Positions 1,102 to 13,096 of a stretch of 64,000 nt of DNA are shown piece after piece. Below the pieces are notes generated by a model that did no database searches, was not told the DNA's origin, and was given only the letters and a program-made list of their open reading frames with translations. Source of the DNA: Phyllosticta citribraziliensis (lineage: Eukaryota); NCBI RefSeq assembly GCF_038025025.1, contig NW_027117339.1:1612001-1676000 (forward strand), written 5' to 3'. Each line of letters begins with the position of its first letter. Position 1 is the first letter of the stretch. Both the position numbers and the translations under genes were made by a program.

Positions 1102-4100
1102 TCACTCGTCAGCGGAGATGGTCAGCTCGGGCAGCTGATGATTCTCCTTGCCCTTGGCTCTAGAAGCCCACTTCCTCTGTTTCGGAGCTCCCCAACCCTC
1201 GTCGTCATCCTCGGTCGGGACCCTGGCCGGTTTCGGCTTCACCCGAATGGTCAGGCGCTCGGGAGAAGAGTGTTGAACGCTCGCCTGCTGCACCGTTGCA
1301 GGCTGAACCGTGGTTTGGGACATGACTGTGGAACTACCGTCATGGATCTGCTGGGACACGGGTCTGTAGCGTGCAGACTTGCCTATATTGCTGCGCTCCG
1401 AAGGCGCAAGAGATGGAGCATACGCGTTGGCCGCGAGATGGGACCCGAAGCGTTGGCCCATGGAGCTCATGTTCATGGTAGACGTGCGTCCCGAGGGGTT
1501 GAAAACGCTGTTTGGACGCGGACCGTTGCCGGGCATCGACATGGTGCGCTGGCCTTGATTAGGAGTCAGGAAGTTGGACTGGGGCATTTGAGGGGACATC
1601 TGGGGCATCATTCCGGGCTGCATCATGGGCTGTTGCATCATGGGCTGAGGCATCATGCTGGCTTGCTGCTGCTGCAACATGCTTTGCATCTGCTGCTGCA
1701 AGTTGGCCATTTGCTGCATCTGCTGCATCTGGATTTGCATCTGCTGAATGCCCATGCCCATGGGAGGCATGAGCATCTGTTGCTGAGCAAGCATCTGCTG
1801 CTGAGGGAGCATTTGCTGCTGAGGCATAAAGGCCATGGGCTGCGCTGGTGGTGGTACCATGCCTGACATTTGCGCCTGCGGCTGGGGGATCCGCTGGCCG
1901 AAGTGAGGGTTGCCGTATATTTTGGTGGCGCCTCCACGTCGGGCTTCCTTTTCCTTCTCGGCGTCGGCAATCATGTTGACAAGGGTGGGTTGGGCATTGC
2001 CGCTGTTGGAACCGCCATATGTGGATCCAGGGCCCATGGCGCCAAAGGCCATCGATTCACGAATGGGGCCATTTGAGGATCCAGGTCCAATGGCTCCAAA
2101 GCCGAGCGATTCACGAGCAGGTTGCTGAACGAGGTTGGCTCCGTAATATGGCTCCTGAGGAACATCGGCCGGGAGGTTCCTGGCAAAGGGAGGGAGGGAG
2201 CCCCGGTGGTCACCATCCATGGCTGACCCGGGACGGAAACCTTGGGCGGAAGACGACCGCAAGTTGGAATGAGAACCGGCATGCGACAAGCGATTTCCGA
2301 GCTTGGGAAAGTTGTGCTCTTTGAGAATTCCGAGCGGAATGTCGTCCGAATCATCTTCGACATTGTCGAATGCGGCCGAAGCGTGGTAGCCAAGAAGTTC
2401 GGACGAGCTAAGGCTGCTTCGGTTCAGGCCCGGCCGCTCTCCGCTCAGGGGACGATTCATGCCACCGGTTGTCTTTTTCATCATTTCGCGGTGGGCATTC
2501 ATCTTTTCTTGCTGCTCTTGCCGAATCTTCCTCATCTCTTCCATCTTCCTACGCTCTTCCTCCTCCTGGTCATCGTCAATGTACTCGTCCGGTTCCGATT
2601 CAGACTCGTCGCTCGGGGGCTCCCGCATGTGCTGTCGCTTGAGTCGTGCAAATTCGGCCTGCGTCATGCGAGGCTTTGGTTTGTTTTCTTCGAACCGAAC
2701 GCCCGACTTTGCGTTTGGAGGCGTCGTCGACTTGTTCCACGACGTTCTTTCGAAAAGCGGCTGCTCTTCCTCGTTCTGAGCTCTGGCACGAGGAGTTGAG
2801 TCGTCCATGAATTCCGGCGAAGGCGGAGAGGGGGCCTGATGCTGGTGGATGCTCGACTCGCCCGAGGAGAACGATGGAGATTTGGTCGAGACATCGGATG
2901 AGTGCGGCTCATCAACGATCTGGTTCCGTTTCGTTGTCTGCGCCGCGTGGGCTCGTTCAAGCTCACGGGATTCACGGCTTTTTCTAAAGGAATCTCGCAC
3001 CATACGAGCGTCTTCGTCCTCGAAGGTCTTGGGTCGCTTGGCGAGGCCATTGGAACCAAACTTGCGTTCGTGAACAGGGCTCGTGGAAGTCGCGCGAGGC
3101 TGAGGCGGGGGTGGGGGCTCGCTTGCAGGAATTGGCGGAATGGTGTCTACCCGCGGGGGTGTTGGGATTGCAGGAGAGCAAGACATGAGGGCGTCATTGG
3201 AGTCTTGACTATGCCATGAGTAGGGAGACCCAGGCATTTCTGGCCTCTTGACGACGCGCACCGGCGACGAAGGGGTAGGTGGTACTCCAGGAATGAGAGC
3301 CTTGGGCGGAGGCGGCAGCGCCGAGTCAGAACCCTAGTCGCCGGGTTAGTCATCGTGGAGCAGCAAAGGTTGGCACGATCAACTTACGGATCTCACAGAG
3401 AGCGGTGCCGGAGGCAAGGCAAAGGCAGAGTCTTCCAACGGTGCACTCCTCCGGTCGTTACCGAAAGATCCAAACAGGTCGGAGAGTTCGTTGCCAAAGT
3501 CAGCCTTGGGCAGGTCCTCTAGCCTGGGAGGATGCGCCGTGCTAGCGGAGCTGCTGGCTGTCAAAGCACGGTCTCTGCCGCTCATTGGGTCAGGCATCGG
3601 GTCAGGTTCAAATCTGGGTTGGTCCAACTTCAAGTCCTTGTGTGACTTTTTCTTGCCAAACGGAAGGCGGGTGAAACTGGTAAAGGATGAGGTACGGGCC
3701 CCATCACCAGGAGTGGGAACCTTTTTAGTGAAGAGATTTTCCTCCTCAATGTCGGTCGAGGACGGCAGGGTGGAGCTGGAGCTGTAGCGTTGCGATGAGC
3801 CCGTATCGTAGAAGCGAGAGGAATTGCCAGCACTGCTGCCATTGCTGCCCCTGGGGAGTATTTAGACCACGTCCGAGCGTTACACGAGCATCTAGACTTA
3901 CCGGTTGCCTATGTTTCGGATACCGTCGTCATAGGACGGTTGGCGCGTGTGTTGGACCGGGGAGACGATTGGCCGCGGCTCAAAAGAACTCACGGGGCGC
4001 GCAGCGACAGTTCGCCTGACAGTAAACGAAGCACTGCCAGAATCCTGCACCTCGTTTCGGGCCATGACCCTAAAAGAAGACGTACCCGACGGCTTTTCGA

Positions 4101-4167
4101 GGAGATCTTCGACGGCGTTGCCAGCGGATTTGCGGCGTTGAAACGCCTTGGGCACAAAGTTTGGCAT
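1102..4167 (-). CDS. Hypothetical low-complexity protein (Ser/Pro-rich, Gln/Met-rich C-terminal half), 3 exons
   Basis: ATG at 4167 (MPNFVPKAFQRRKS). Introns 3901-3851 (GTAAGT..CAG) and 3387-3334 (GTAAGT..CTAAC..TAG) join ORF pieces in frame into the 719-aa ORF ending at 1102. No catalytic domain recognised. Confidence 0.8.
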
Positions 4168-5513
4168 GGCTGCGACTCTGAACGAGTGGTGTGTATCTCT
4201 TTCGAAATTGAAGCAGAGAGCCTCAAGCCGAACGGACTATGGATGTGGGTCGCCGGGTCAGATTTGCATCGAAACCGCTCAATGGTGCCCGAAAGTATTG
4301 TGGGGTATGATTGAGGAGCGACCGAATAATGGTGAGGGTTGGCAGGGCGGGTGGAGGAGAGGGGGGCGTCGAAGGGTCGAGTGGTCGAGTCAAAAAAGAG
4401 TGGCGCGACACGACTGTACGCAAAACAGGCCGGTTAGCGGATTGGTTGTTTCGAGCCGCAGAATGAAGAGTAGAAGAAGCGACAGAGCGAGCCCGGGGGC
4501 GCGGCTAGGGGCGAGTCGAGTATGATGAGGGCGAAGCAGGGACTCGGGCGTTCCTGAGGCGTCGACGGACGATTCGAAGAGGTGGTGGAAAGGTGGGAGC
4601 GAGGGCGAAGCAGCGTGTGGAGGGCTGCTTGGTGGAGAGTCGAGGTGAAGCGTTGGAGTCGAGGAGGATTGGGTTGAGGGAGGTGGTGGGAAGCTGGGCG
4701 GACGTCGTTGGAGGCCCTAGACGGGCGGCGGTTCTCCTAGACGGGGCCGGGGTGCCCGGGGAAGGGAGAAGAAGCAACCCTGAAGACGACTGACCTTTTT
4801 TGGAAGACGGGAGACAGGGCCCTGGGGGGCAATGTGGCGGGGCGTCGGGAGGGTGAAAACGAAGGACGACTTTGACGAGTCTTGACGAGCGATGGAGTAG
4901 CGAGAGCAGACGAGAAAAGGCGGCTCTATGGATGTCGCAACGGGAGGTGGTGGTTTGGGACCAGGCCAGTGCCGGGTCAGGAGTTTGGCGGCGTCACGTC
5001 GCCTAATACGAGGCCGGCAGCGCTAGGTAAGGTAAGCAGCCTAAGGAACGAGGAGCATGAAAAGGCCTGCGTCAGGGATCCCTCAGCCGGTCGTTATTTT
5101 AGAAGTCAGATGGCGGCCGGGCAGCATGCGATGTGCAGCGCCGCGTCGATCTTGAATTGGCTGCCTACCTAACGTACTCTGACTGACTGACTGCCCACAG
5201 ACAGAGACAGTGACAAGTCCCTTGCAGTTGGCAGCACGCATCCAGAGTTGAAGGACGAACCACAGGACGAAGACAGCGGCGACAGAGACGACGGGTTTCG
5301 GTCGACGTCTGCAAGCAGCGCCATGGACAGGGAGCGTTGGATCCCCCCTGTGCAGGACCTGGTCAGCGTCTAGCGTCTAGCGGAGGGCGGTGCGGTGGCT
5401 GCCAAGGGCAGGGGTGACTACAGTAGGTGCCTGCCCTGCCCTGCCTTGGACTGAGTGCCCGAGCCGTGTTAGGTTCCACCTGGGGCCCACCGCACCCACC
5501 GCACCCACTCGCT

Positions 5514-5914
5514 CACGGCCACGGCCACGGCCACGGCCACCTCACGACCACCTCACGACCACCTCACTACCAAAACAAGACCACTTCACGCCCACGCCCA
5601 CTTCACGGCCACAGCGCATCGCACCGCACCGCACCGCACCGCACCGCACCGCCGCCCCGCCCCGCAGCGAGACCTGACGGACGGACGGCTCCTTAGGCCT
5701 TGATGGACGGCCATTGGCATTGGGTCAGTGGGCACCAACAATAACAACAACACGCACACACCCGCCACTCCCTTCCCTCCATCTGATGTCCCCCGACGCC
5801 ACACTCCAGCCCCATTCTCGCTCCCGTCCGTCAACACCACCACCCATCCATCCCAAGCACCTCCTGCATCGCGCATCGCGCATCGCGTCGCGTCGCATCG
5901 CATCGCATCGCATC
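5514..5914. repeat. Cluster of short tandem repeats: (CACGGC)n, (GCACC)n, (GCATC)n
   Basis: Visible arrays at about 5514-5538, 5621-5650 and 5866-5914. Confidence 0.85.
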
Positions 5915-5949
5915 TGGACACCTCCTAACCAACTGTACAAATATCCTGC

Positions 5950-8600
5950 GACACCCCCTCCTCGCTCACCCGGCCAGCCTGCCGCGAGCAGCGACCGCCC
6001 GTCCGCCCCATTCTCGAACCGGTCGAATACACCATCTGTACTAGCTACAATGCCTTTTTCTTTGTCGCCGTAGGCTGTTTTCGTTTCGGCTCTGCGCCGG
6101 GCCCCCTCTTCGCTCTAGCTTCACCACTACCAACCCTCACCGCACTTCTGCTGTCTCTCTCTGCTCACGTCTCTTGCAAGACCAACTTTGTTACCCCACA
6201 CGCCCTTGGGGATCATGCACGATGCGGCCCGGGCCTCTGGCTGTACATCGTCAAAGGGCCCAGAGCGCCTGCCATCAAATCATCACTCGCTCTCCTTGTG
6301 ACACCCTTCCATCTTTCCACGCCCCACCCACTGTCTGCAACCCGCCCCTCTCTCGCTCTTCTGCCTGCACTGTAGCCTCGACCCTCAAAGCGGTCCGACC
6401 TGCTTCCCCATGTCCCCCGCCCATCCCGAAAGACTTCGACCGCCGTGTAGGACAACACGCACTCGAAACCTAGCGCCCGTGTGTGTACAGCGTCGTCTTG
6501 TGTCACTTTGCAAGCCGTGGCTTTGGTCCCGAAAGGGTCCAGTATGCCAGTACTTTGTCGGGCACCCGTTGCACCCGGCTCCTCCTCGCCATGCCATTGT
6601 GCCATCATACATGGCCTGCCTTGCGCCCCGCTCTCTCATCACAGTAGCTGCCGTAGATTGTCAAAGGCTGATGCTGTCTCAGAAGAGCCTTCAAACTTTT
6701 CTTTTTGGCGCGACCTGGCTGGCTGGTCCATCACCTGATGGTAACCCCTACGCGTCCTTGGTGTAATGTGTATTCCCTCGATGCCTCCTCTTCCAGACCC
6801 ATCAGTCAGCAGAACCATGACGAGTCCCGCATCAACTTTCTCTTCTCGTCGGGACGCAGTGTCTGCCGATGACGTCTCAACACGAGCTCCTGGACCACGG
6901 AAAACCTCCCACGCGCAATCCTGTGCAAGTCCTCAGAGCTGATTCCGACTTGGCATGGGGGGGGGGGGGGGGGGGGGGGGGTTTCAGGATTCGTCAACAC
7001 AGCCAGTTCCGCGCTCATGGCCGAGGCGTCGTCGTCGTCGGCGTCGTCGTCGTCGATGTCGGCACGGCCGTCTGTCCCAGCAACACCTAGTTTCAAATCC
7101 CAGGACCAATCGCCGAGCTACCCTAACGGCCGTGTCCACATCTGCAAGTCCAACAGGCGCGCGCGCGCGCCGCCTTCGCCGACGTCGACTTTGCGTAATA
7201 TGTCATTTTGGAGCGTCTTGATCCTTCGTCAGAACTTTGACCCCCCAGGGTCGCTGGTCCCTGCGCTTGCATCACGTCCCCTGGGAAACAAAAGAGCGTA
7301 AGCGCACGCTTGCTACAGACACTAGGTGGTCAGCACAAGACTAAAAATCTCAAACCTCTTGCTTGCTTGGCGGGGACATGACGAACACGTCTAGAAACTC
7401 TGCGTCGTCGGAAGCAAAAAAGGCGTTAATTTGATTGCCCTCCTCCGACTGTGTCCCACAGGAGTCGACATTGGGCTTCTGCTGCATCGCTTCTGAGACC
7501 GGGAAGCGCGACCACGACCAGCGCACTGCCGGCATGCCCGCAGTCCACGCGCCGCAATAGTCATGCCTTTAGGCTCACAAACGTGAATCAACAAAGCCCC
7601 CAGGGCCTCGTGCGCTTCGTCCTCAATCCACCGTTTCCAATCCAGGTGGCTCCATCCATCCACTGCCTTTTTCGCCGCCAAGTCCACCTCGACGGCCCAA
7701 CTCCAGCTCTGCCAATTCTTTCTTTGCTAGACAATATGGTTGTTTTCCGTCGGCAGCGGCGGGCGCCGCGGCGTCATCATGCGAAGTTGGGACTACTACT
7801 CGGCTCTCAGGCAGTCGACACTTTCGATGATCGCAAACGGGCATGACACCCACAAATCTCGTATTCCCAGCCACCGTCCTGCCACTTGCGGCTCTTGCCA
7901 TACCCATTGGGAGCCGCCGCCGCTTGGCTATCCTCAACTGCGCACAAATTTTCGTAAATGCGAGGCGAAAAGGGAAAACGTAGACGAGCAGCCTGATGAA
8001 GAATCGACACAAGCGACTTGCATGGCGGCGCTTCCGTGCTGCTCGACTCTCTTGACGACAAAAAACATTGGTTTGCATGTGTGTGGGCGCCGTGGCCGTC
8101 GCCGCCGCCGCCGCCGCCGCCAACTCCACTAGAAACGGTACCGTCACTGGGCGCGCAAGCTAGCGGCTAGCCTGAAGGAAGTACCATCAGCAGACAAGGC
8201 CGAGAGCAATGAACGAACGACAAGAAAACGAAATAATTACCCGCCTATAAGCCATGAGTAGAGCAAGCGTGTCTCTGTAGTTCGCGCGGGATCAGCTACT
8301 CCCAGCCGGCCACATAGCCCGGCAACGACGACGACAAGAACGCCTTCGCCGCCGCCGCCGCCGCCGACCAACGAACAAGTCTCTTCGGCCGGCACGCTCC
8401 CGTCGCTGTTTCTGCTTTCTTGTTTGAGATTTTTGGTTTTGTTTCGCCTTGTAGCCCTCCCTCCCCTCGCTTGCCGCGGGCACTACTTTGGTCCGTGATA
8501 CAGAAACAGGAGCCGGGCCAAAAGAGACGAGACAAGACAAGCCGGGCTGAGCTGGGTAATTATGCGTTGTTTGCCCAGGTCAGGTCCGGTCGGGTTCGGT
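5950..8600 (+). ncRNA. Candidate spliced, structured long noncoding RNA (boundaries approximate)
   Basis: Intron signals at 6542-6682 (GTATGC..GCTGAT..CAG) and, weaker, 6070-6180 (GTAGGC..GCTCAC..AAG). No credible long ORF. Multiple nested long-range helices, most of whose G-U wobbles favour the plus strand. Confidence 0.5.
6957..6981 (+). repeat. G25 homopolymer
   Basis: 25 consecutive G. Confidence 0.95.
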
Positions 8601-10860
8601 TGGGTTTCTGAGTGCCTGCCTGTCTGCCCGCGTACTAGGAGCAGACGGCGGCGGTTTGCGTGAGACGCTGAATAGTACTTGGCAGGCACCATGAATGCGA
8701 ATGCCTTTTTAACTGCTGATTGTGTTCAAAATTGGGTATCATGGTCTGATTAGCGATGCGCTGATCGGTCGAGAACGGTGGTCGGTTTTTGGGCTTTCTA
8801 AAAGCGATGGCGAATTGACCATGGTGTTTTGACCAGGGGGATATCAAGACGTGTTGAAGCAAAGTACCTAACAGTCCTGGACCTGACCTAACCTCACCAA
8901 ACCAGCTGACCCGTCTAAGTATCCAGCCAGCCAACCCTGACCAGAGCAGAAGCGGGCACTGTAAAGTCAGGCCATCGCGACTTGACCTCAAGCCCGGCCG
9001 GCGGGCTCCAAGGGGTGCTTCAAACGTTGGGTCGAACGAGATAAACGACCAACGACGACGGATGACAATGATGATTGTTTCTTGTTCCGGTTCCGCTCGT
9101 CGCGGCGTGGGTTGGCTGGCTGGCTCCGTCTTGGTCGAGTCTTGGTCGGTACATGTAGTCAATTGAAGCGTTTGAAAATGCATGTGGCTAGACGCCTGCT
9201 TTTTATTAGAGCAGGCCATGTGCAGACAGTCATGAAGCCATCTTGTCTAGCGGCTTGAGTAATCAACCATTGGCGCGATGGGTGTGGTGGTTGATCGTTT
9301 GGTCGCCCACTGTGGACCACGTGTGTGCGCGTCATGCCGCTGAGACCTGGGTGTGCCTTGGGACCGTTCACATGGTGCCTGGTGATTCTTCTAGCGTGTG
9401 TCGTGTGTGTAGACGACTGAGGAGAGCGCATGAATAGACGGCCTAGACAAGCAAGTGAGTCGTGGACGGGACCCAGGGGAGACGATATTTTTGACCAGCG
9501 CCACGTACATACCATTTTAGTACGCAACATAAGACTCAGAAGCTGTACGTCCGCTCTGCTTTGTCTCTCAACTGATGCCTTTGCATTTCTCGGCCACAGT
9601 TTCCACGTCCTACGAAGTTTTGCGCCCAGCCTTTGCCATGTGCGAGGTTGCAACTGGACCGCCTGATTGGTCAGTAGGGCGCTATTGCAATCTTAAGCAC
9701 AGTGAACAAATAGACAAGGATTCGGTAGGGAGACGAGAGTGTGTCCGGAAAGGATACAGGGTGGGCATTGCGAGGAGTCGGCGTGGCCTCGTCGTCGAAA
9801 GATGAATGAGTCGATGAGGCAAGAGTCGGCAAGTTCGGCCGGGGAAGTGTCGACCTGGAGACGTAGCTGGAATCTGGAGCGCTCTGGATCTGAGCACCAC
9901 TACCTGCTTCGCGGATTCCTTTTGTTCCATCGTAATCGAGTCCACATTCTGAGCACCACGCAACGCATCTTCCCCTTCCTCATAGCTAAAGCTGGCTGGC
10001 TGCAGTGGCTTTAGTCTGTCTGTTCAAAGTCGTATATTCCTTACGGTACTTGCGACTTCAATTTCGTGCTGGTAGAATGCGATGTCGTGATTCCTGGCAG
10101 AGTCCTATCCAAGCTCTTGGTCCCTAGTGCTCATCATATTCTGTCAAAGGTACAATGGCTGCCTGTATGGAATGCTCTTGTCGCCTGCTCGGTGCTGGTT
10201 GAAGAAACGAGGAGCATTTGCTCCCTTCGTAGACGAAAGAAGTGCAACTTTGATGTGAAATCGAATACTCAAGCCTGAGGCTGGTTGTTAGCAGCAGTCT
10301 GCAAGATCGGGAGCCCGTCTTGACTCAGTTCGCCCTCCGCTCCGAGGGGAAACAAGTGCTCGTGATTCTTCGAAAAAGAGAGGTTTGACGGTTTCAAAGA
10401 CGGGGTTCCGGCGAGACAAATTCAGTAGCGGTCAAAACCCCCATTCCAGATATAGGGAGTGCTCAAGGGCTGCGCTCGAACCGTGCATCGCTGGAGTCTT
10501 TTGGCAGCCGGAAAACTTGGATCTTCATTGAAATTTTCTTTACTCAAAGCCTTTTCCCGTTCGAGTCCTTGATAATCGAGTCGATGTTGACGTATCAAAT
10601 GGGTAATCGGACTGCTCTCGTGCATGTGGAACTTCCATGTGCTCTGCATCGCTTGGCTGGAGAATTGCTGTCGTTGTAAACACGACAAGCAGGAGCTTGG
10701 AGCCTTTCAATTGCCTCGATGAAACGGCAAAGCAGTGATTGTGATGATGAAGTTCCGTAGATGGTAGCTTGTTGCAACGAGCCTTTAAGTCAAATTACTT
10801 CAAGGCTCCGGAGGCTCATACTGGCGCCTTCGCCCACCGCTTGAGTCTACCCATTTCCAC

Positions 10861-11217
10861 CTAGTGATCCGCAGAAATGTACATGACTGCAAAGCATCAG
10901 CTCATCGTGTTCTGCACGTGGTGGAAGGAAGGGTTACCGTTGTTTCCTCTTACGAAAGCGTCCCCATAATTCCTGCGCAGCTTGCCATTCACAAACTCCT
11001 TTGTTTGCTCCAAAGCAATGTTCATGTAGCCATCGACGGATTGAAGTTCGCCTAGAAAGGAATCAGCAATCTGCAGAGCGCTGGTTTCCTTCGAAACCAA
11101 CTCAAATGCCGCACCCTTGTAGACAACGCCAGAGTTCAACTTGACGGTAACGGGAGCGCCGATGATCTCGCTCAGGAAACCCGACGGATCCTTGGCCTCT
11201 GCTGCACCGTTCTCCAT
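10861..11217 (-). CDS. LSM6: U6 snRNA-associated Sm-like protein Lsm6, 3 exons
   Basis: DPSGFLSEIIGAPVTVKLNSGVVYKG|ELQSVDGYMNIALEQT..YGDAFVRGNN|VMYISADH*, with Sm1 and Sm2 motifs. Introns 11114-11052 and 10937-10887. Confidence 0.95.
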
Positions 11218-11535
11218 TTTGTGTAAGCGTGTAGATGAGAGATGGATGAGTTTTGAGGACGGTATGAAGGTGGTTGTTCCGGAGGAGTTCGTTTGGATTG
11301 GCCCGAGCGCGACCGCTCGTGACTGCGCGCGTCCTTCGGCTGAAGCGTCGCGCGGCTGCCGATCACCTTTCCTCTAGCAACCCTTCCTCGACATCCACAA
11401 CACCCATTTTGTGACCGCCGTCTCCAAGGCTCGGATATATCATAGCCGCGCTCAGAGGCCAAAAGACGACAAGTACCGGCCGTCACCGATTCCATTGTTG
11501 AGGTCCACCACTATCGATAGTTTCTAAAAGCAGAC

Positions 11536-13096
11536 ATGCCGGACAGCGACACGCCGCCAGACAGCATCGCGCGAAAACCGAGGCGACAGTTCTTCAAAAA
11601 GCCCTCATGGCAGGTGAAAAAGGATGACGACGATCCGACGTCGTTGTTCGACGGCTCAAAGCAGACGTACTCTGCCATACGGGCCGAGGAGGAGCGCAAG
11701 CGAAAAGAAGAGGAGGAGCGCAGGCGAAAAGAAGAAGAGCGCAAGCGGCAACGAGAATTAGAGGAGCGCAAGAACGAGGAGCATCAGAACAAGGAGTGTG
11801 AAGAGCGCCGGCAGGACAAGCGTCGAAAGATCAGTCGCGATTCTGAGGACGCTGGCCTCGATGACTTTCGAGCTTCGGTCACAACGGAAGGCTACATGGC
11901 GTCGGTTACCAACAGTCGACAAACACACTTACCTGCATGCTGACTGGGACTAGTGGTAAAAGCGAATCACCCTCGGACGACAAGAAGCCCGCTGCGCTCT
12001 CGTCTTCACCTCCAACAAAGCGTTCGTCCACATCGCTCTCGTCCCGGTATGAAGAATTTACAAAACGGTCGGAATCTATAAAGCCGGAGGCTCTAGCCCA
12101 AGAAAGCGCGCAAGTTCGAGAAGGGAAACGTGCCAACAAGGACACGATAGTCATCGATTTGGACGATTCAGACACAGCAGAAGATGCTAGCCTGGGCGGG
12201 ACAAAAGAGGACATTCCGGCAAAGCCCGTCGATCCGGACGATGACATTGACGAGTCTGACCTCGAAATCCGAGAAATGATACGCCAATCAAGGCGCAAGA
12301 AAAGACTGGCCGAGGAGCAGAGGGCCCGGGCAACACCCCCAGCTGCAAGTGGACTCGAGCGTCAAGGGTCAGCGTCGTCTCTGGGCTTAGGCACGCCACA
12401 ATCGCCCAGTCAACCTGACCCACCAGTGCAACTCTTCATCCAACCGAGGATACCCAACACGAAACCTCTCTTAGTCACGCGTCGGCTTTCTCAACGTCTC
12501 CAGGAAGTTCGCGAAGCGTGGTGCCGAATTCAGGAGTTCGATGAGGAAATGACGCGAACAGTATTCCTTACATATCGAGGAATCCAACTCTATGATGTTA
12601 ACACGCTCAAAAGCCTGGGTCTCTCTTTGAATTCTGAAGGGCAGCTTGTGAATAAATACCTCAAGCACTCGGATCCGGAAGAGGATGCCAACAAAATCGC
12701 CTTGATAGCGACAACAAAGGAGATCCATGAGGCAGAAAAAGAAGAGAGCAGACGAATGACAGAGCGGCATCCAACACCTGAACCGGAGCCCGAGCCTGAA
12801 GAGAAGAGAATCAAGGTTGTGATCAAAACGAAGGACCAAGAGGACTGCAAATTCATTGTCAAGCTTGTAAGTGCTTCTTTGCGGCTACTAATGCGGGACA
12901 GGGCTTGCCTGGTACTAACAACGAATAGTCGACCGAATTTGGAAAAATGGCAAAGTCTGCCATGAATAGGATGAAGCTGACAACACATTTGAGCCCATAT
13001 TTGTGCTTTGATGGAGAGCGCCTCGACCCCGACGGCACCATGGCGGACCTTGACGACTTCGAGGACGAGGAAGCAATTGACATGTTTTTTGAGTGA
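11536..13096 (+). CDS. Rad60/Esc2/NIP45 (RENi)-family protein with C-terminal SUMO-like domains, 3 exons
   Basis: Introns 11901-11953 (GTCGGT..GCTGAC..TAG) and 12867-12928 (GTAAGT..CTAAC..TAG). The last exon reads ..LCFDGERLDPDGTMADLDDFEDEEAIDMFFE*, a SUMO-like signature without the di-Gly. SIM-like TIVIDLDDSD upstream. Confidence 0.8.

Follow-up and report, generated by a model that had tools for sequence, protein, structure and literature searches.

The locus and its transcription

We examined a single intergenic stretch within a fungal DNA window rich in guanine and cytosine (64,000 nucleotides, nt, of Phyllosticta or a very close relative, Dothideomycetes, as matching proteins indicate; positions throughout are counted from the first letter of this window), which is bounded on the left by a minus-strand gene (ATG at 4167) and on the right by LSM6, also on the minus strand. 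An initial annotation, made from the letters alone, had proposed here a plus-strand, spliced, heavily base-paired RNA gene at 5950-8600 that lacks a long open reading frame (ORF). The proposed location was confirmed: LSM6 matches the Pfam LSM domain (E 1.1e-13), and assembled contigs are spliced across introns in each of the two neighbours. The proposed extent proved too short, as the transcribed block reaches ~10 kilobases (kb) on the window scale.

To establish what is transcribed, we placed contigs assembled from four public sequencing runs on positions 3000-12000, with runs X1 and X2 representing organism A (a near-perfect match to the window) and runs X3 and X4 representing a relative, organism B. 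Contigs of all four runs skip introns of the flanking genes at joints 3332/3387, 3849/3901, 10886/10938 and 11050/11114, all with CT..AC ends (skipped spans 3333-3386, 3850-3900, 10887-10937 and 11051-11113), and we therefore take the four runs to be RNA assemblies, a property known solely from this intron skipping. Across the block, contigs cover 5671-6945, 6992-9441 and then 9512-10886, with repeat breaks at 5502-5670, at a run of G (6946-6991) and at a (GCC)n repeat (8083-8131), and breaks fall at repeats only. The leftmost contigs span 5671-6945 in X1, 5671-6328 in X2, 5856-7321 in X3 and 5727-6945 in X4, and the X1 contig over 6992-9441 has 0 mismatches to the window. Cover is sparse or nil at 5107-5670, and this part was not used as evidence. 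Because contigs from both organisms cover the block, the stretch is transcribed in two species.

Comparison of the two organisms revealed a fast-evolving sequence with many insertions and deletions (indels). Mismatches plus gaps of organism B against the window came to (80+68)/1466 over 5856-7321, (31+19)/610 over 7387-7996 and (100+28)/1290 over 8132-9421, and identity across the block is ~90-92%; the same comparison in the coding second exon of the left neighbour (3387-3849) gave 4/463 differences. Two further signals in the contigs were considered and set aside. A gap in organism B at ~9540-10100, taken as a sign of separate transcripts for LSM6 and for a long non-coding RNA (lncRNA), may equally represent divergence past the 85% likeness cut-off, and the joints 5899/7028, 7056/8346, 7996/8341 and 8362/5885 were discounted as chimeras arising at repeats of the (CGT)n, (GCC)n and GCATC types.

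Splicing on the minus strand

Evaluating the contigs for splice junctions, we required at least 31 letters on a junction side for a robust call, and strand was read from the junction ends, as the contigs themselves carry no strand. The resulting features of the block, from left to right, are these (aa, amino acids):

5671-7321, strand not assigned: transcribed block without a junction, from contigs of X1-X4; it includes both plus-strand introns of the initial annotation
6957-6981, plus strand: uninterrupted run of 25 G within the transcribed block; it breaks the run assemblies, and 6946-6991 is skipped as repeat
7322-7386, minus strand: 65-nt stretch best read as an intron (GTTCGT..GCTGAC..TAG); X3 joint 7321/7387 with CT..AC ends, side 27
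7387-8171, minus strand: exon, from contigs of four runs; holds a 151-aa ORF (7623-8078)
8172-8240, minus strand: 69-nt minority intron with weak support (GTAATT..GCTGAT..CAG); joint 8170/8240 with CT..AC ends, in X2 only, depth 4, side 28
8241-9442, minus strand: exon, from the X1 contig; holds a 194-aa ORF (8635-9219)
9443-9512, minus strand: 70-nt intron (GTATGT..ACTCAC..TAG); joint 9441/9512 with CT..AC ends, seen in X1 (4080-nt contig, side 255) and in X2 (side 28)
9513-10000 (right limit approximate), minus strand: putative 5' part of the first exon; X1 contig 9512-10886 joined to 9441

The joint 9441/9512, given its CT..AC ends, marks a minus-strand intron, and all three introns show the GT..branch..YAG layout on that strand. 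The intron at 8172-8240 is retained in the X1 contig. Organism B firmly shows the skip of 7322-7386, whereas contigs of organism A retain this stretch, with X3 contigs stopping at 7321 and restarting at 7387 exactly, as a spliced/unspliced bubble would give, and with X4 placing this third joint at 7321/7391 (side 255), which reads GT..AG with the cut moved 4 places. Among contigs of the four runs we found no unambiguous plus-strand GT..AG joint in 5600-10100 and no junction left of 7321, and because the contigs are unstranded, 5671-7321 is left without an assigned strand.

The plus-strand introns of the initial annotation fared differently as motifs and as splices. The motifs GTAGGC..GCTCAC..AAG at 6070-6180 and GTATGC..GCTGAT..CAG at 6542-6682 are indeed present, but not at an above-chance frequency, with a strict intron pattern occurring across the whole window at 0.34/kb on the plus strand and 0.48/kb on the minus strand, and a loose pattern at 11.6-12.5/kb. 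The corresponding junctions, 6069/6181 and 6541/6683, appear in none of the four runs, and contigs cross both sites unbroken. As contigs can lose rare isoforms, the missing splices mean that these are not the main form, rather than that they are never used. The spliced micropeptide ORFs proposed for the same RNA relied on these splices, which lack support.

A probable non-coding transcription unit, with LSM6 read-through as alternative

With moderate confidence, we interpret the block as part of a ~4 kb transcription unit of RNA polymerase II (Pol II), spliced on the minus strand, that yields an ordinary non-coding transcript. Its start would fall in the interval from 9513 to the 3' end of LSM6 near 10078, and it would extend leftward to at least ~7000, and probably to ~5650, which is just upstream of where the following minus-strand gene has its promoter. 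A single RNA may span the whole block. Any effect would presumably act through transcription in cis toward that downstream promoter rather than through a folded RNA, or the transcript may have no function. The earlier proposal of a spliced Pol II lncRNA thus survives in part: the stretch is transcribed, spliced and free of a credible ORF, whereas plus-strand splicing and a structured fold are dropped.

Several observations weigh against this interpretation. At the junctions, two of the three have sides shorter than 31 letters, leaving 9443-9512 the sole robust one; the skip of 7322-7386 could be a deletion in the organism B genome; and the X4 alignment of this third junction also allows a plus-strand GT..AG, with the poorer signal GTGGTC. 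Further to the left, a separate RNA could be read from the plus strand over 5671-7321, where that strand is C-rich like a sense-strand 5' region and mirrors that of the neighbour, and P. capitalensis has a plus-strand gene model (P0004) in this block. In addition, the 194-aa ORF remains open over ~145 aa in P. citrichinensis, and the X1 contig is continuous with LSM6.

That continuity bears most directly on the alternative that the block is LSM6 read-through or a long alternative 3' untranslated region (UTR), in which 9443-9512 would be a 3'-UTR intron. The block and LSM6 share a strand, and one X1 contig of 4080 nt extends out of the LSM6 exons via 10078 and the spliced 9443-9512 to 6992. Contig ends do not mark RNA ends, however, and a contig across two genes does not prove one transcript. 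The LSM6 3' end lies near 10078, where one X2 contig stops against adapter letters. Among compact fungal genes, it would moreover be very unusual for the messenger RNA (mRNA) of a ~80-aa protein to carry a 4-5 kb 3' UTR holding as many as three introns, and we consider read-through unlikely.

Coding potential of the block

In keeping with the earlier claim of no credible long ORF, the longest ATG ORF in 5600-10100 is the 194-aa ORF, and it stays the longest after removal of any combination of the three introns. Pfam searches gave no credible match for 10 ATG ORFs of the stretch, with only far-sub-threshold rows at E 0.034-0.93, and none for the 60 stop-to-stop frames that reach 45 aa. To score codon use we trained a log-odds score on the seven ORFs of the window longer than 300 aa. 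By this weakly discriminating measure the 22 ORFs of at least 60 aa lay between -0.39 and +0.15, with the six longest between -0.05 and -0.17, against -0.01 to +0.20 for real genes and a mean of -0.09 (standard deviation 0.10, n=52) for out-of-frame controls.

We then weighed whether the 151-aa and 194-aa minus-strand ORFs might be one or two young, lineage-restricted coding genes, which we regard as improbable. In favour of such genes, P. citribraziliensis has a hypothetical-protein annotation for each ORF (P0001 for the longer; P0005, a cluster mate of the window ORF, for the shorter), and the 194-aa ORF, 99% identical to P0001, has a model in P. citrichinensis as well (P0002, 71% identical and likewise annotated as hypothetical), which is in frame for its first ~145 aa. 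Past this point, however, the C-terminus of P0002 is out of register, and the substitutions in P0002 include many radical ones. The 151-aa ORF (7623-8078, minus strand), annotated as hypothetical in the source genome, matches only members of its own 90% cluster, including P0005 (163 aa; 7591-8078, minus strand), which has ~97% identity up to the point where, compared with the window, it passes from frame -3 to -2; behind this frameshift lies a genuine indel or else a mistake in the assembly of one of the genomes. On the opposite strand, P0004 of P. capitalensis shifts from frame +2 to +1, and a database search found no homologue of a further 131-aa minus-strand ORF. No reading frame in the block is conserved.

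Codon scores of the 151-aa and 194-aa ORFs are -0.05 and -0.16, in the non-coding range, and neither has a Pfam match. Both stand on one contig, flanking the 8172-8240 junction and behind upstream AUGs, and the X1 contig together with the 8172-8240 joint places both annotated ORFs on one RNA. Taken together, the unstable frames, the non-coding codon scores and the missing Pfam match suggest, at the level of sequence, that the two hypothetical proteins are probably chance ORFs on one non-coding RNA. The significance of the locus is small beyond annotation hygiene: two GenBank hypothetical-protein models in the genus probably represent chance ORFs.

Neighbouring genes and the downstream promoter

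The left neighbour (1102-4167, minus strand) joins three exons into a 986-aa protein rich in Ser, Pro and Gln, and a Pfam search of its three exons matched 0 families. Its 5' UTR is spliced, with a 381-nt intron at 4414-4794 (joint 4413/4795, CT..AC ends), and extends to ~4944.

With a tandem gene on the same strand that already has a spliced 5' UTR, the block might instead be a 5'-extended isoform of this downstream gene (ATG 4167), driven from a distal promoter near 10 kb in the manner of LUTI transcripts. Among the rows examined, however, no contig or joint connects 5671 to the 5' UTR of the gene, and the extension would amount to ~5 kb, so we hold this isoform to be quite improbable.

Dense C-rich microsatellites with CACGGC, CACGACCACCT, CGCAC and CGCAT units occupy 5486-5661 and 5866-5914, and those at 5486-5661 separate the 5' UTR of the left neighbour from the transcribed block. 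On the other flank, the LSM6 mRNA has an apparent 3' UTR of ~800 nt (10078-10886, minus strand), long for so small a gene, and a plus-strand gene diverges from LSM6 at 11382-12000, with a GT..AG intron at 11901-11953 whose junction in organism B differs by 2 nt.

Folding and RNA families

We scanned the block in 200-nt folding windows at a step of 100, each compared with 40 dinucleotide shuffles. Folding is at chance level, with no excess pairing: mean z over 44 folding windows (5601-10100) was -0.12 for the plus and -0.02 for the minus strand, and over 26 folding windows (5901-8600) it was +0.30 and -0.01, respectively, with no advantage to the plus strand from G-U pairing. When the three best windows of this coarse scan were refolded with 200 shuffles, they gave z of -1.70, -0.15 and -1.96. 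The seven named helix sets, in their listed order, gave plus-strand z of -1.35, -0.43, -0.48, -2.48, -0.87, -0.48 and -1.06, that is, six lie above -1.4, and the one below -2 is so on both strands, as follows:

7052-7189, both strands: symmetric inverted repeat, z -2.48 (plus) and -2.73 (minus); adjoins (CGT)n and (GC)n runs

Folding energy was no better than that of dinucleotide shuffles, an outcome that the initial annotation had named as one of those refuting the structured RNA.

The initial annotation had seen no snRNA, RNase P/MRP, SRP or TPP riboswitch signature. Rfam at gathering thresholds gave 0 matches across the whole 64 kb window, and at E<=10 on 4000-11000 it returned only two chance hits: mir-3960, which fell on a GCC repeat, and a segment of a C-rich lncRNA. 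Their scores of 25 and 17 bits stayed far below the cut-offs (73 and 55). Looking for the DNA of relatives, a metagenome scan with the conserved exon of the left neighbour yielded 291 pattern matches and 0 confirmed relatives.

These results bear on the model of a plus-strand, spliced, highly structured RNA at 5950-8600. In its favour are the intron motifs, the unstranded contigs that show 5671-7321 to be transcribed, the P. capitalensis plus-strand gene model and a C-rich plus strand at 5500-6500, where the skew of G over C, which changes sign around 5400, reaches -0.42 and -0.34 (5501-6500). Against it stand the absence of both its junctions from all four runs, the plus-strand mean z of +0.30, the six helix sets above -1.4, the lack of an Rfam match and the minus-strand junctions to its right, and we judge it very unlikely. 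The region offers a clear case of GC-rich sequence between genes in which motifs resembling introns, and helices drawn by hand, do not exceed chance.

Comparison with known systems

Non-coding host genes of small nucleolar RNAs (snoRNAs) are multi-intron, ORF-less transcripts with snoRNAs in their introns. The locus transcript is likewise multi-intron and ORF-less, but each of its introns measures a mere 65-70 nt, and the search at E<=10 yielded no match to any snoRNA family, which makes a snoRNA host gene unlikely.

Telomerase RNA of filamentous ascomycetes (Pezizomycotina) is processed by the spliceosome and is marked by a template of ~1.5 telomere repeats, a pseudoknot and a P6/P6.1 three-way junction. 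We consider a telomerase RNA of this kind at the locus extremely unlikely, as no such RNA family matched at E<=10 (4000-11000) in Rfam, which we take to include an ascomycete telomerase model. The plus-strand word ACCCTAAC at 7120-7127 could serve as a template for TTAGGG repeats, but it is antisense to the spliced transcript, whose minus strand has no template-like word in 5000-10200, and the predicted fold has a helix with its 3' arm overlapping this word. Words of this 8-mer class occur 7 times in the whole window and once in 5000-10200 (both strands in each case), so the match at 7120 is expected by chance. According to PMC3592445, filamentous-ascomycete telomerase RNA is ~2 kb and ORF-less, a long Pol II RNA of a size class compatible with the locus (2049 nt in N. 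crassa), whereas the template in N. crassa has 9 nt against 8 nt here, the locus word lies on the wrong strand at a chance-level match, and the family search detected no conserved core. Among the papers listed for Phyllosticta non-coding RNA and for P. citribraziliensis RNA sequencing, none dealt with such a locus, and LSM6 is not mentioned in PMC8216456.

Closer in geometry are transcripts that lie directly upstream of another gene's promoter on the same strand. The yeast SRG1-SER3 and LUTI systems consist of such upstream transcripts acting in cis. At our locus the minus-strand junctions lie upstream of a minus-strand gene with a 5' UTR to ~4944, in tandem and on the same strand, as cis interference would have it. 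Transcription over the target promoter and opposite regulation are features of SRG1 and LUTI, whereas the locus is likened to them by geometry alone. Extending the preferred interpretation along these lines, a ~4 kb spliced non-coding RNA in at least two Phyllosticta species might tune the tandem gene, which encodes the conserved 986-aa Ser/Pro/Gln-rich protein without a known domain, in cis, with the short ORFs of the RNA as raw material for new genes, a speculative proposal that we think rather unlikely. If true, this cis-regulatory reading would add one more instance to a mechanism already described, here in a genus with citrus pathogens among its members.

The best match is with fungal intergenic lncRNAs, which are likewise transcribed, several kb long and interrupted by short canonical introns, with no conserved ORF, low sequence conservation and no evident structure. 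Nothing sets the locus transcript apart from this class, of which it appears to be one more ordinary example.

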